Part shown: piece after piece, positions 1,380 through 27,345 of the stretch
Numbering within the stretch: the stretch's first letter is position 1
Layout of the letters: every line of letters begins with the position of its first letter
NCBI GenBank assembly: GCA_964016885.1
Contig: CAXHJY010000677.1
Location: 1-27,580 of the forward strand
From: Eledone cirrhosa
Taxonomy: Eukaryota
Length of the DNA: 27,580 nt
Direction: 5' to 3'
The notes under the pieces: generated by a model
What the model was told of the DNA's origin: nothing
The model's input: only the letters and a program-made list of their open reading frames with translations
Database searches by the model: none
Translations under genes and position numbers: made by a program

Positions 1380-1418
1380 TGAACCTGAAGATTGCGAAAG
1401 CATGAAAGTACTTGTTCA
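1380..1418 (+). ncRNA. Minimal type I hammerhead ribozyme
   Basis: tgaac-CTGAAGA-ttgc gaaa gcat-GAAA-gtac-TT-gttca. Stem I tgaac/gttca; palindromic stem III (GTAC). Confidence 0.8.
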
Positions 1419-1563
1419 ATTAACACTTAGAATTTAATATTCTATCATACTATTTCATTATAATACCATTATATATATTTTAAAGGATTGTAAATAAAAC
1501 GAGTAAATCAGACAAAGTTGGAATTCCTCTTATTAATATATATATATATATATATATATATAT

Positions 1564-1955
1564 AAGCAAAAGGGATATTCAATTTGTTGGTAATTCAACA
1601 AATATAAATGTTTAGAACTGATTCAGAGCACTCGACGGATTTCTGGAGTATAATATTCAATGATATTAAATAAGTTTTAGTAACTATACAAGGAAAACTT
1701 GAACCGTTAAGGTATTTTTCTTGATTATGTCAAAATTTATAAAACAAACTTCGTATTTTATCTGATGAAAGCGTACCAAAGTTTTGGTAGCCTTGAAATA
1801 TATATAATAGAATAAATATGGTTTTATAAATATAGTTTCCATTTGTTTAATATCATTGAATATTATACTCCAGAAAACTTGTCGAGTGCTCTGAATCAGT
1901 TATAAACATTTTTTATTTGTTGAATTACCAACAAATTGAATATCCCTTCTGCTTA
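1564..1955 (+). mobile_element. Non-coding hammerhead mini-element with about 110-bp inverted arms, in (TA)n
   Basis: About 1564-1672 is the reverse complement of about 1843-1955. Central hammerhead, (TA)n on both sides, second copy at 27168-27345 on the minus strand. Confidence 0.85.
1754..1814 (+). ncRNA. Type I hammerhead ribozyme
   Basis: tattttat-CTGATGA-aag..taccaaa gt tttggta..ctt-GAAA-tatata-TA-atagaata. Confidence 0.85.
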
Positions 1956-2054
1956 TATATATATATATATATATATATATATATATATATATATACATAT
2001 ATATATATATATACATATATATATATATATATATGTGTGTGTGTGTGTGTGTCT

Positions 2055-2320
2055 GTGTGTAAGTATCCTAACTCCCCCCTCCTCTCCCTCTCTCTCCCTA
2101 TATATATATATGTATCTGTATGTATATATATATATATGTATATATAATATAATATAATATATATATATAAATATATATATATATATATATATATATATAT
2201 ATTTATATATATATATATATTATATTATATTATATACACATATATATATATACATACAGATACATATATATATAGGGAGAGAGAGGGAGAGGAGGGGGAG
2301 TTAGTATACTTACACACACA
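2055..2320. repeat. Inverted repeat flanking a (TA)n tract
   Basis: aagtatcctaactcccccctcctctccctctctctccctata..tatgtatctgtatg (about 2055-2150) recurs reverse-complemented at about 2230-2320. Confidence 0.85.
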
Positions 2321-2796
2321 TATACACACAAGGAATATGAAAGAGGGGACAAAAAAAGAGGTTAATTTTTTGTACGTTTTTTTGTTTCTTCCTAATAGTA
2401 TCAAATACAGATTATAAATCGTGTTATTGCAATATTGTGCTTGTAAATACTCTCTATGATACATTTCTCTGTCTTCTGTTCTATCTTAGTTCAATGGAAA
2501 ATGAAAATCATAATTTATTCATTCATATGTATATGTGAGAAAGGGAGTTCACTATGTATGTGTGTCAATATATTTGCGCAAATCTGTGAGAACGTATTGC
2601 TTAGTTTTTGCATTTGTATTTGTACCTGTTAAATTGAGCTGGACGTTATTGTAAATCTAATGTGTCTGTTGGGTTGATACATTGTAACTAAGAAACGTAT
2701 TATATTTATGCAGAAAGAAGAAGCAAAATATAATTTAATAAATATATAAATATATTTGCTTAATATATTGCATTAATAACATATACATGTGTCTAA

Positions 2797-23998: not shown

Positions 23999-26738
23999 CT
24001 AAAGGAATAAGGGTGGGGAGTTCAGGCCGGGGGGAGTGTGGGTCTGTAAGATGAAGATAGTGCGTTGTTCGACCGTAAGGCGATGGGTGGGTGTTCCGTG
24101 GCACTGGAGTAGGCCACAGACTGTGAGATGGCGTGCGGAGTGTCCAGGGCCACCAAAGTGGCGGGCGATGGGGGAACTGCCCCCGAGACGAATATCCCGG
24201 AGGTGCTCCGTAGACTAGGTTGGAGGAGGTGCAGCGGAAGGCATGCCGGACCGAGAGAGGGTGGCCGTTGGGACCCTGGAAGGTGGTGGTGTTGGTGATG
24301 TGGGGACAGGTGTTGCAGCGGGGCCTAGAACAGGGGAAGGAACCGGAGGGGGGGAAACGGAGAGTGGGTTGGGGGGTAGGGAGCTGTGGACGAGGAGGGT
24401 GCGGAGATTGCGTGCGCGTTTGAAGGAGGGGAGTGGTGGGGTTAGGAAGATGTGGGAGGTGGAGGGGTCGGACTGGAGGCGTCGGAAGAGGCGGCGGATG
24501 GTGCGGTGGAGGGGTAAGGTGGAGGGGTGGTAGGTGATGGGGAAGGGGAGACGGTGGGTGGGTGTGCGGTGGAGTGGGGTGAGGGTGGTGAAGCGGGGGA
24601 TAGCACGGGCGCGGGTGAGAGCGGTGTGGACGAGAGGGGGGTAACCTCTGCGGATGAAATGGCTGACTAGGGAAAGGGCCTGGGACTCGAAGTCAGCATC
24701 TCGGCTACAGAGGCGGCGGATCCTGAGAAGTTGGGAGTAGGGAATGGAGAGTTTAGTGTGGGTGGGGTGGGAAGAGGTGAAGTCGAGGTAAGAGTGGGAG
24801 TCGGTGGGTTTGAAGAAGGCGGAGGTGACGAGGGAGTGGTGGGAGGGGTCGAAGGCGACGGAGATGTCCAAGAAGTGGACGTGGGTGGTGGAGATAGAGG
24901 TGGTGAAGTGGAGGGAGGGGTGGAAGGAGCAGAAGAAGGAGAGAAAGGAGTCGAGCTGTACTCGGGTGAGGGTCGTGGCTCCGATACAGTCGTCAATGTA
25001 ACGACCGTACAGTTCGGGCGTGGGGCCGGTGTACTGGGCAAAGATTTGGGCCTCAACATGGCCAACAAAAAGGTTGGCATAGTTCGGGCCCATTCTTGTG
25101 CCCATGGCTAACCCCGTGACCTGTTGGTAAAACTCACCCGAGAAGGAGAAACAATTTAGGGTGAGGACCTGCTCGGCGAGGCGAAGGAGGGTGGGGTTGG
25201 AGGGAATGGGGGAGGGGCGAAGGTCGAGGTAGTGTTTGAGGGAGCGAAGGCCGTCGGCGTGGGGGATGACGGTATAGAGGGACTTGATGTCTAGGGTGAA
25301 GAGGAATGGCTGAGGGCCGGGTAGGTAGGTGAAGGAGTCGAAAAGACGCAGGGCGTGGTTGGTGTCGGAGATGTGGGAGGGGAGGGTGGTGACAAGGGGG
25401 GCGAGGAGGGAGTCGAGAAAGGCGGAGATGAGTTCGGTGGGGCAGTTGCAAGCGGAGACGATGGGGCGGCCGGGGTTGTCGGGTTTGTGGAGTTTGGGGA
25501 GGAAGTAGATGGTGGGGGTGCGGGGGGTGCGGACGATGAGGTGGGAAGCGGTGGGGGGAGGAGGGAGGAGGCGATAAGGTCTTTGATGGTGGAGGAGACT
25601 TGTTGTTGGTAGAGGGGGGTGGGATCGGAGGGTAGAGGGCGGTAAAAGAAGGGGTTACAGAGCTGCCTGAGGGCTTCGGCCGTGTAGAGGTCCGCGCGCC
25701 ATACCACCACGGCGCCTCCCTTGTCCGCCGGTTTGATGACGATGTCATCTCGGCTACGGAGGGAGCGGAGAGCGAGGAGTTCGCCCCGTGAGATGTTGTG
25801 CCGTTTGGAACGGTGGCGGAAGTCGAAACGATTTACTGCGCTACGGCTGGCATCGACGAAGGCGTCCAGGGTGCTAAATTGCCCTGGGGCCGGCGTCCAA
25901 GAAGATGGTCGTCGGCCCAGGGCGAGAAACGGGTCTGGGGCGTCCGGAGCCGGTGGTGTTAGGCTGAAATGTGCCTGTAGCTTAGTGCGTCGCACGAATC
26001 GCTCGACTTCCGTTCGGGTGCGGAACTCGTCGTTGAGCGGAGTGTGGGGTGTGAAGCGAAGGCCTCTACTAAGGAGTGAGCGCTCAGGTGCGGAGAGGGG
26101 GAGGTCAGGGGGTATGGTGACAACAAGGGGTGGGGTTTGGGTGTTTGGGGAGGGAAGGGAGGGTGTGGTGAGGGGTGAGGTGGAGGGTGGAGATTGGGTA
26201 GGGGTGTGGGTCGGGGGAGAGGTGGAGAGTGGTGGGCGTATTGGGATGGGCGGGCGGTGGTGGATGGGGGGGTTGGGAGGAGTGAGTGTAGCTTGCGGGC
26301 TTTGGTGGAGCTGAGGAACGAGAAGAGGTTGTGGTTGAGGTTGTAGATGAAGGAGAGGATGGCTTGGGCGAGGAGGGGGTGGCAGGTGGAGTAAAGGCGG
26401 AGGAGGGTGGGGGTCAGTTGGTGGTCAAGTAGGCGGAGGGTGGAACGGGAGGCGCGGATGGAGTTGCGCATCAGAAGGCGTGAGGATCGGGTGAGGATAC
26501 GTTGCGTGGAGGGGGAAGCAGCGGGGGAGGGGTGGAAGTGTAGACGGAAGCCGAGGGGGATAAGGTGGAGGCGGAGGCAGTGGCTGAGGAAATGGATGTG
26601 GCTGGAGTGCCGGGTTTTGGCGAAGAGAAGGTAGGAGAGTTGAAGGGCGGAGGGGAGATAGCAGGGTGGAAGGAGGGGGGTGAGGAAAAGTTTGAGGCGA
26701 TTGTGGAGTTGGTGGAGAAAGGATCTCAGGTTGGCCAT
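23999..26738 (-). pseudogene. PLE reverse transcriptase/GIY-YIG polyprotein with three frameshifts and an endonuclease deletion
   Basis: From ATG 26738: HFLSHCLRLHLIPLGF; LLSRGLRFTP; IKPADKGGAVVV; YFLPKLHKPDNPGRPIVS; LDIKSLYTVIP; GLAMGTRMGPNYANLF; RYIDD; FLD; KPTDSHSYLDFTSSHP; PCSRPRCNTC; C..SNLVY then EHLRDI..IARHF..PGLN; stop TAG at 24001-23999. Confidence 0.95.
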
Positions 26739-27009
26739 GATGGGCGTTTGGTGAAAGCAAGGGGAGGGATGAGAGGGCGGGAGTGTGAAGCGGGGTGGAG
26801 TGAACGAAGGGGTGAGTGCGAAGGATAGGCAGAGACGGGGAAGGGAAAAAGAAACAGAAAAACGTAGGGAGGGGGGGAGTAAACACCGGAAAATTAAAGA
26901 CAAAAAATCATATATATATATATATATATATATATATATATATATATATATATATATATTCACATATATATATATATATATATGATTTATATGTACGTAT
27001 ATATATATA

Positions 27010-27152
27010 GGAAAAGATATCTAGCTGTCGAAACGGCCGGAGCTCAGCCGTCGGGTCCTGACTCTTTTCCTATTACCCACTCTACTACACTAAGTATCGA
27101 GTACTCTGGTGCGTTAAGATCCACCTGGTTTCTTACCACACCTTCTTTGCTA
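27010..27152 (+). mobile_element. Family C 3'-end copy (diverged subfamily)
   Basis: gtcGAAAcggc cggagctca gccgTCggg...ttcctattacccactctactacactaagtat. Confidence 0.8.
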
Positions 27153-27167
27153 ATATATATATATATA

Positions 27168-27345
27168 CCATGATATTAAATAAATGTAAACTATTTATAA
27201 AACCATATTTATTTTATTATATATATTTCAAGGGCAACCAAGCAAACCTTGGTGCGCTTTCATCAGATAAAATACAAAGTTTGTTTTATAAATAAAACGT
27301 ACCCATGAAAATCATACCTTATCGGTCGGAAATTCACTGGATAGT
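27168..27345 (-). mobile_element. Second copy of the 1564-1955 mini-element family
   Basis: Reverse complement of about 1700-1856. Confidence 0.85.
27210..27274 (-). ncRNA. Type I hammerhead ribozyme
   Basis: Minus strand: tattttat-CTGATGA-aagcgcaccaag..cttggttgccctt-GAAA-tatata-TA-ataaaata; perfect 8-bp stem I. Confidence 0.85.

Follow-up and report, generated by a model that had tools for sequence, protein, structure and literature searches.

Penelope-like elements (PLEs) of the Hydra clade, which carry a C-terminal endonuclease (EN) and hammerhead ribozymes and target (TA)n tracts, were described by Craig et al. 2021 (PMC8557442), with Hydra-1_Obim from Octopus bimaculoides among them; the available part of that paper also asks whether hammerheads merely parasitise PLEs. 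Retrozymes, as defined in the accessible parts of two sources (PMC7229834; bioRxiv 10.64898/2026.07.22.740005), consist of head-to-tail units that each carry a hammerhead. In the Anolis element Poseidon PAc, according to the accessible text of Frangieh et al. 2024 (PMC11167929), hammerhead mutants still insert in vitro and cleavage is dispensable. Here these systems are compared with a stretch of 27,580 nucleotides (nt) from Eledone cirrhosa (contig CAXHJY010000677.1, positions 1 to 27,580), called the window below, in which hammerhead motifs lie in islands between (TA)n tracts.

The system as such is not new: published PLEs of the Hydra and Neptune types already combine hammerheads with TA targets, an octopus family included. 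The islands in the window are very probably 5'-truncated, often two-armed copies of several PLE families, mostly Hydra-type and two of them Neptune-type, and the hammerhead likely sits in the terminal repeat of each element. The first-pass annotation listed 12 motifs and left two readings side by side, extreme 5' truncation of TA-targeted PLEs and independent propagation as retrozyme-like elements. The truncation branch is supported: 10 of the 12 motifs were linked directly to a PLE open reading frame (ORF), one (9521) was linked indirectly, and one (11508) has no link. Fixed 3' ends, ragged 5' ends, inverted arms, optional tails and the absence of tandem units argue for truncated PLEs and not for retrozymes. 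For the families other than F1, F3 and F8 (numbered below), 30 loci each were fetched by likeness to the 3' end, and in six families with 30 loci each the 3' end was fixed, running into TA or a tail, while the 5' extents were ragged; inverted arms were common among the family loci and same-strand neighbours rare.

The 12 motifs sort into nine families (F1 to F9), and a tenth, F10, which was absent from the first list, is found at 8826, 20929 and 27010 and is Hydra-type by its endonuclease. The PLE-related features of the window are as follows, with the strand where one was assigned.

3..1535, plus strand: F1, 3' part of a Neptune/Nematis-type PLE with its 3' untranslated region (UTR), hammerhead core at 1385-1413 and a tail running to the TA tract
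3-1004, plus strand: ORF of F1, with a reverse transcriptase (RT) thumb, a CX4CxxC linker and a GIY-YIG match (E=1.3e-6)
1565..1953, plus strand: F2, two-armed stub seen by self-match, with an inverted tail arm at 1565-~1700 and a sense arm with hammerhead 1762-1806 and tail
4494..6581, plus strand: F3, 2.1-kb 5'-truncated Hydra-type PLE between TA tracts, with EN at 4505-5089 (GIY-YIG E=8e-4, below the Pfam cut-off), a 1.4-kb UTR and hammerhead 6491-6529
7200..7360, minus strand: F5 3' end and tail, inverted, matching 10658-10708 and 9713-9747
8826..9312: F10, two-armed stub with no hammerhead core, interrupted by a short interspersed nuclear element (SINE)-like repeat at 9045-9231
9373..9681, plus strand: F4 stub with hammerhead 9530-9579
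9712..10707, plus strand: F5, with inverted tail 9712-9781, 3' UTR 9804-10707 containing a nested SINE-like repeat, and broken hammerhead 10643-10672
10856..11017, plus strand: F6 stub with hammerhead 10920-10973
11082..11334, minus strand: tail of a further PLE-like family, cut off 3' of the hammerhead core
11416..11596, minus strand: F7 stub with a short inverted arm and hammerhead 11554-11514
11661..11818, minus strand: F8 stub, core 11778-11748 with weak helix I, 88% identical to 22525-22682
20929..21069: F10 stub, no hammerhead
21126..21735: F9, fragments of the tail plus a two-armed insertion that carries hammerheads 21545-21493 (minus) and 21628-21681 (plus)
22525..26909, minus strand: F8, near full-length, a frameshifted Neptune-type PLE of 4385 nt ending in core 22642-22612 and a tail
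27010..27152, plus strand: F10 stub, no hammerhead
27168..27346, minus strand: F2-related stub, 85% identical to F2, with hammerhead 27266-27218

Coding parents and clade assignment

For F1, F3 and F8 the link from motif to ORF lies inside the window itself. Across the window and the fetched loci (numbered with an L), motifs 1754, 27210, 6481, 10638, 10911, 21484 and 21618 lead to Hydra-type ORFs, that of 27210 by way of its 85% identity to F2, and motifs 1380, 11750 and 22611 lead to Neptune-type ORFs. A second copy of F1 with EN and UTR was found in L206. Upstream of F2, EN was found 1.13-1.17 kb from the query in 4 of 30 loci, the window's own neighbour excluded, and L327 has both RT and EN. 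The spacing from EN to hammerhead in F3 is kept in 7 of 29 other loci, with RT ORFs in L321-L326. EN lies upstream of F5 in 4 of 30 loci and also in L330 and L331; upstream of F6 in 6 of 30, continuity having been checked for part of them, with RT and EN in L334; and about 1.0-1.2 kb upstream of F9 in 2 of 30 (L021 and L024), as well as in L336. For F10, a Hydra-type EN lies upstream in L283 and the UTR is common to L282 and L285. F4 is linked indirectly, by the same inverted Hydra RT fragment adjoining the stub in 2 of 30 loci; upstream the family continues for over 1 kb, across internal TA/TG tracts, and no F4 hammerhead was reached within 3.3 kb of the inverted Hydra ORF beside it. The idea that every family would trace to an RT/EN ORF thus holds directly for seven of the nine families with listed motifs and indirectly for F4, and fails for F7. 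Related to F3, three tandem endonuclease-UTR units about 3.7-3.8 kb apart were seen in L319-L320 (C2:391.56-391.58 Mb); they contain a damaged hammerhead as well as further repeats. A longer copy of the family at 11082-11334 (L363) shows, by eye, CTGATGA...GAAA upstream.

Judged by their motifs, F2, F3, F5, F6, F9 and F10 are Hydra-type PLEs. Each has a C-terminal GIY-YIG; the RT before it was reached for F2, F3 and F6, and the EN only for F5, F9 and F10. The CxCX5C linker is present in F2, F3, F5, F6 and F10, and the aligned F9 fragment begins after it. The aligned Hydra-type endonucleases have no CCHH and carry CxxC and CxH near the C-terminus, and DKT replaces DKG in L323, L326, L328, L300, L306 and L309. 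A canonical hammerhead lies near the 3' end in F2, F3, F6 and F9 and is missing from F5 and F10, which otherwise behave as Hydra elements do. F1 and F8 have a CX2-5CxxC linker before the C-terminal GIY-YIG (CNDNRCGTC in F1, CSRPRCNTC in F8), and F8 adds a DKG motif and an RVT_1 match (E=7e-5, below cut-off). CCHH is found in the F1 endonuclease, and the F8 copy of the window lacks that stretch. Judged by these features, both appear Neptune-type, and F1 could be Nematis-type.

The likeness to the published Hydra clade, as far as the available text of PMC8557442 describes it, extends over the C-terminal GIY-YIG, CxCX5C, the lack of CCHH, DKT, the hammerhead near the 3' end, the (TA)n target, 5' truncation, inverted arms and the tail. 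The differences are the number of families in one genome (at least 6-7), UTRs of 1.0-1.4 kb, tails of about 60-100 nt against 30-40, and the lack of a canonical hammerhead in F5 and F10, hammerheads being called universal in Hydra there. With Neptune (Arkhipova 2006, as described in the same available text, PMC8557442) the window shares the CX2-5CxxC linker of F1 and F8, the DKG of F8 and the microsatellite bias. In the part available, a paper on Octopus vulgaris repeats makes no mention of hammerheads (PMC13282606).

Hammerhead motifs as RNA structures

The motifs were evaluated with a type I descriptor that asks for CUGANGA, helix II, GAAA, helix III, UH and at least 5 of 8 pairs in helix I. 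Some hammerhead-like string is present at all 12 coordinates, and nine are descriptor-complete, with cores starting at 1385 (plus), 1762 (plus), 6491 (plus), 9530 (plus), 10920 (plus), 11554 (minus), 21545 (minus), 21628 (plus) and 27266 (minus); 50 block-shuffled windows gave none. With core, three helices and covariation, these nine of the 12 are type I hammerheads by sequence, and cleavage is predicted for them. The earlier count of about 12 therefore stands for nine complete motifs, and falls short for two weak ones (11750, 22611) and a broken one (10638). At 11778 and 22642, both on the minus strand, core, helix II and GAAA are present and helix I forms 0-1 of 8 pairs in the descriptor register, or 2 bp, by eye, in the minimal GAAA-CG-UC register. 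This weak helix I is the state of the F8 family, seen in 20 of the 20 loci shown. The F5 motif at 10643-10672 reads CAGAAGA in its core (U4 to A), has G at position U16.1 and no helix I, and position 4 is A in all 79 of 79 matched copies of the fetched loci. Since its helix II is similar to the one in an intact hammerhead family (L238, L415 and L040), the F5 motif is likely a decayed hammerhead.

Two other early statements did not survive the count. The motifs had been assigned to 7-8 unrelated families; nine were counted, four of which have a homologous hammerhead and related endonucleases. Most islands had been said to carry a motif, which is an overstatement: by hand count of the 19 TA-bounded islands of 100-1100 nt, seven carry a complete motif and two a weak or broken one. 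An Rfam scan of the window gave no hammerhead at gathering level; its sole hammerhead row was 11519-11554 (E=5), and the rest was mostly microsatellite noise. The window yielded no further motif when helix III of 0-2 nt and U3/A8 cores were admitted, and a genome sample of 78 evenly spaced 10-kb stretches (780 kb) yielded none when the short helix III was. Permuted hammerheads have blocks C, G and S in non-circular order, with three helices (PMC10085705, in the part available). A search for the SGC, CSG and GCS orders found no non-CGS fit in the window and 0-3 in shuffles, and is insensitive, as its stricter rules let through only 2 of the 9 type I motifs.

Stem covariation was seen among family members. 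In a set of 11 hand-picked members of the group with a six-nucleotide-palindrome helix III, 91% of cells are paired and two-sided changes occur at 15 of 18 pairs, a partly circular measure that 0 of 500 shuffles match and for which slid registers all score lower (34-54%). The fetched loci together hold 427 motifs in 38 clusters, 24 of them with at least two members. In 15 of these 24, helix III forms a full even palindrome, and the inner helix II, which lies outside what the descriptor demands, gives a better fold than shuffles do in 10 of 15 testable families. These two observations are less circular than the covariation, and by them the motifs match the dimer-type minimal hammerheads of metazoan PLEs (PMC4209133). 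The available text of that paper describes the same type I fold with short palindromic helix III and long helix II; it attributes thousands of solo copies to truncated PLEs and notes opposite-strand pairs 100-700 bp apart. The density here exceeds the 2,000-9,000 minimal motifs that the paper gives for other genomes: the 780-kb sample holds 53 hammerheads (0-2 in shuffles), about 60-70 per Mb, or by rough extrapolation about 200,000 in a 3.0-Gb genome, and the window is about five times richer.

Several points weigh against truncated PLEs as the full account. F7 has no linked ORF, with no convincing case in 30 loci selected at the 5' end, and F4 has an indirect link; moreover, an ORF-bearing copy leaves room for non-autonomous subfamilies with the same 3' end. 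The covariation members were picked with a pairing descriptor, and the aligned members are related. The N-terminal RWK motif was not found in the 41 loci searched, whose N-termini are mostly truncated, and Pfam gave no RT match for the four Hydra-type RT fragments tried. The Hydra RT assignment comes from motifs and by-eye likeness to the alignment in the accessible part of PMC8557442, and the long UTRs make these elements longer than the described Hydra families (<3 kb).

Tandem units, family F7 and TA tracts

Could the islands of the window as a whole be retrozymes, that is, small tandem hammerhead units expressed as circles and independent of any truncated parent? Tandem hammerhead arrays do occur elsewhere in the genome, and in the sample 13 of the 53 hammerheads are tandem, next to 33 solo and 7 in inverted pairs. 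No hammerhead family of the window is tandem, however, and the sole short tandem family of the window (F10, 234-nt units) has no hammerhead; together with the direct ORF links, this makes such an origin very improbable. The six best-sampled clusters, with 321 complete hammerheads, hold two same-strand pairs within 1.2 kb, and one further same-strand pair, 1059 nt apart, belongs to F7. The head-to-tail unit of about 150-450 nt that marks a retrozyme was thus not seen in the window families, nor was the lack of a coding parent, F7 alone being unlinked, and the idea of independent retrozymes is not supported for them.

The tandem families elsewhere look different. They share with animal non-LTR (non-long-terminal-repeat) retrozymes, as described in the accessible parts of PMC7229834 and bioRxiv 10.64898/2026.07.22.740005, the lack of coding capacity, the type I hammerhead and a proposed PLE origin, and the 310-, 460-, 467- and 485-nt families fit these retrozymes, unlike the differently arranged window families. 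An array of 310-nt units with 15 complete hammerheads lies between TA9 and TA36 (L040:7781-10000 and L337:1-~4350, C1 near 177.01 Mb). Six units compared are identical, and the array reads as retrozyme-like and either very young or homogenised. At L049:5900-7700, hammerhead units of 457-530 nt that contain a TA tract are arranged as head-to-tail dimers and as inverted pairs, and 18 of 24 copies have the octamer ATGCAAAT above the core. Units of 467 nt at L061:4400-6400 also form dimers and inverted pairs, with ATGCAAAT above the core in 3 of 5 copies, and a 485-nt tandem unit with a long-helix-II hammerhead lies upstream of an F7 copy in L364.

It is an even call whether some islands, F7 the best case, are non-autonomous PLE derivatives copied by Hydra-type enzymes with a TA/TG microsatellite inside the RNA. 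In 29 of 30 loci selected at the 5' end, F7 starts after (TG)n/(TA)n, about 430 nt above the core (by eye); its copies are 96-99% alike and keep a CTC/GAG hairpin, and no ORF is linked to it. F4 has a recurrent upstream boundary after TA as well, and ORF-less tandem families with internal TA tracts exist elsewhere (L049). Internal TA/TG tracts also occur in Hydra-type UTRs (F4, F5, L419), however, and copying or later insertions at such tracts would break continuity, so a microsatellite boundary is no proof of a true 5' end; nor is F7 tandem, apart from the one pair noted above. The 30 loci selected at the 5' end gave no convincingly linked ORF for F7, a same-strand endonuclease match in L365 appearing to be another family's, and F7 is a candidate non-autonomous element of about 600 nt. 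In 6 of 30 loci (L372:~500-1290, L361, L371, L376, L382, L388) F7 is preceded by a common repeat of 800 nt in the same orientation, which also gives 12 matches in the random sample; it may be a co-mobilised flank or may mark a shared TA hotspot, co-mobilisation being unproven.

Enrichment of hammerheads next to (TA)n, as proposed at the outset, was confirmed. With one long array counted once, the sample gives 47 matches, of which 37 have a TA tract within 250 nt downstream and 16 upstream, against a mean of 12.7 for random points in the same loci. In the 780-kb sample, 157 of 617 TA tracts (7518 of 28456 TA bases) abut the end of a known element, a lower bound given an incomplete element library. 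Among controls the figures are 1 of 80 for TG/CA, 1 of 43 for GA/TC, 0 of 99 for AAT/ATC and 15 of 657 for random points. For repeat annotation it is useful that a quarter or more of the TA tracts here mark PLE ends.

A further suggestion, that the elements account for much of the TA richness of the genome, was not shown, as about a quarter of the tracts abut ends and targeting alone explains that quarter. It seems unlikely that the elements create most genomic (TA)n by adding or duplicating TA at insertion. The abutting fraction does stand far above the roughly 2% at most of other repeats and random points, hammerhead count follows TA bases per 10 kb (rho 0.64), and some elements carry internal TA tracts. 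Three quarters of the tracts, on the other hand, have no known adjoining end (within the same incomplete library), TA on both sides of many insertions is what insertion into an existing tract would give, and adjacency itself gives no direction between elements and TA.

End hairpin, apparent hammerhead loss and other repeats

For truncated PLEs, known PLE biochemistry suggests how such islands may arise. The GIY-YIG endonuclease would nick a TA tract, and two fixed internal sites would serve as alternative starts for RT, the first of them 35-55 nt 3' of where cleavage is predicted. As a rule copying would end prematurely, so that only the final 100-400 nt remain, hammerhead included. A CTC/GAG hairpin that lies 6-9 nt beyond the start site is a candidate for the signal recognised. 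For the hammerheads, cleavage is predicted to take place in dimers or with the aid of protein, and it is likely unneeded for insertion. Poseidon PAc, in the available account (PMC11167929), shares two internal RT starts, an optional tail and AT-rich targets; it belongs to a different clade and its start is an AC-rich stem-loop inside the ORF, whereas the ends here sit just 5' of the CTC/GAG hairpin. At the 3' junction, element RNA and TA share microhomology of 3.5 nt on average over 10 ends, against a background of 1.9 (p=0.07).

F5 and F10 are the commonest window families in the sample, with 24 and 42 matches respectively when inverted arms are counted separately, and touch 68 of the 157 element-abutting TA tracts. 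In F10, no CUGANGA core was found between the endonuclease and the 3' end or in the 234-nt tandem unit. A U3-A8-like core upstream was rejected, as just 1 of the 4 long copies has GAAA. The CTC was evaluated on one copy per family with ends set by eye: at 9 of 9 Hydra-type ends, those of F4, F5, F7 and F10 among them, it begins 6-9 nt beyond the end, and the GAG partner lies in the set range at 8 of the 9, that of F5 being further off and pairing in the fold. The background is 3% of positions, and the end of Neptune-type F1 does not show it. F5 and F10 appear to have lost the predicted self-cutting motif and kept the end hairpin. Among the papers listed by literature searches, which were not aimed at the hairpin, none dealt with the loss of hammerheads from Hydra families or with this hairpin.

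Because the in vitro insertion of another PLE needs no cleavage (PMC11167929, available part), the CTC/GAG hairpin is likely a better candidate than the hammerhead for the cis signal of insertion. A bolder reading, which we put forward tentatively and hold at somewhat less than even, is that the Hydra hammerhead is a dispensable passenger and the hairpin the real cis signal, with F5 and F10, two of the most successful families here, as a natural knockout that spread after the ribozyme was lost and ORF-less passengers like F7 using the same hairpin and ferrying TA/TG in their RNA. With many related families that have or lack an intact motif and share an end hairpin, the role of the hammerhead becomes testable.

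The window also contains repeats of other kinds. A TA-bounded two-armed repeat with a tail at 21927-22461 has a PLE-like shape and recurs in 11 other loci, with no hammerhead in the part seen. Islands 2330-2795, 7380-8700 and 11930-12200 had no match in the other fetched loci; 6599-6904 matched two, neither with a hammerhead. The repeats at 6599-6904 and ~7170-7210 end in a short hairpin followed by CTAG, ends which may be Helitron-like. A SINE-like repeat of about 190 nt has at least eight full or partial copies in the window. The copy at 9045 has a target duplication of about 17 nt (by eye), and the site at 10307 inside F5 is also filled in L019. Its listed positions are:

3070-3263: SINE-like repeat
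9045-9231: SINE-like repeat
10307-10497: SINE-like repeat
16811-17187: SINE-like repeat
18043-18076: SINE-like repeat
19000-19160: SINE-like repeat

Long degenerate (GGT)n and (ACC)n tracts face each other at 13100-14760 as an imperfect inverted repeat, and a minisatellite at 15682-16598 has 12.9 copies of a 71-nt unit that are 95% alike. The window is near-identical to the chromosome stretch C7:43.905-43.915 Mb (L338), with different TA tract lengths, and its contig is probably a second haplotype of that stretch.

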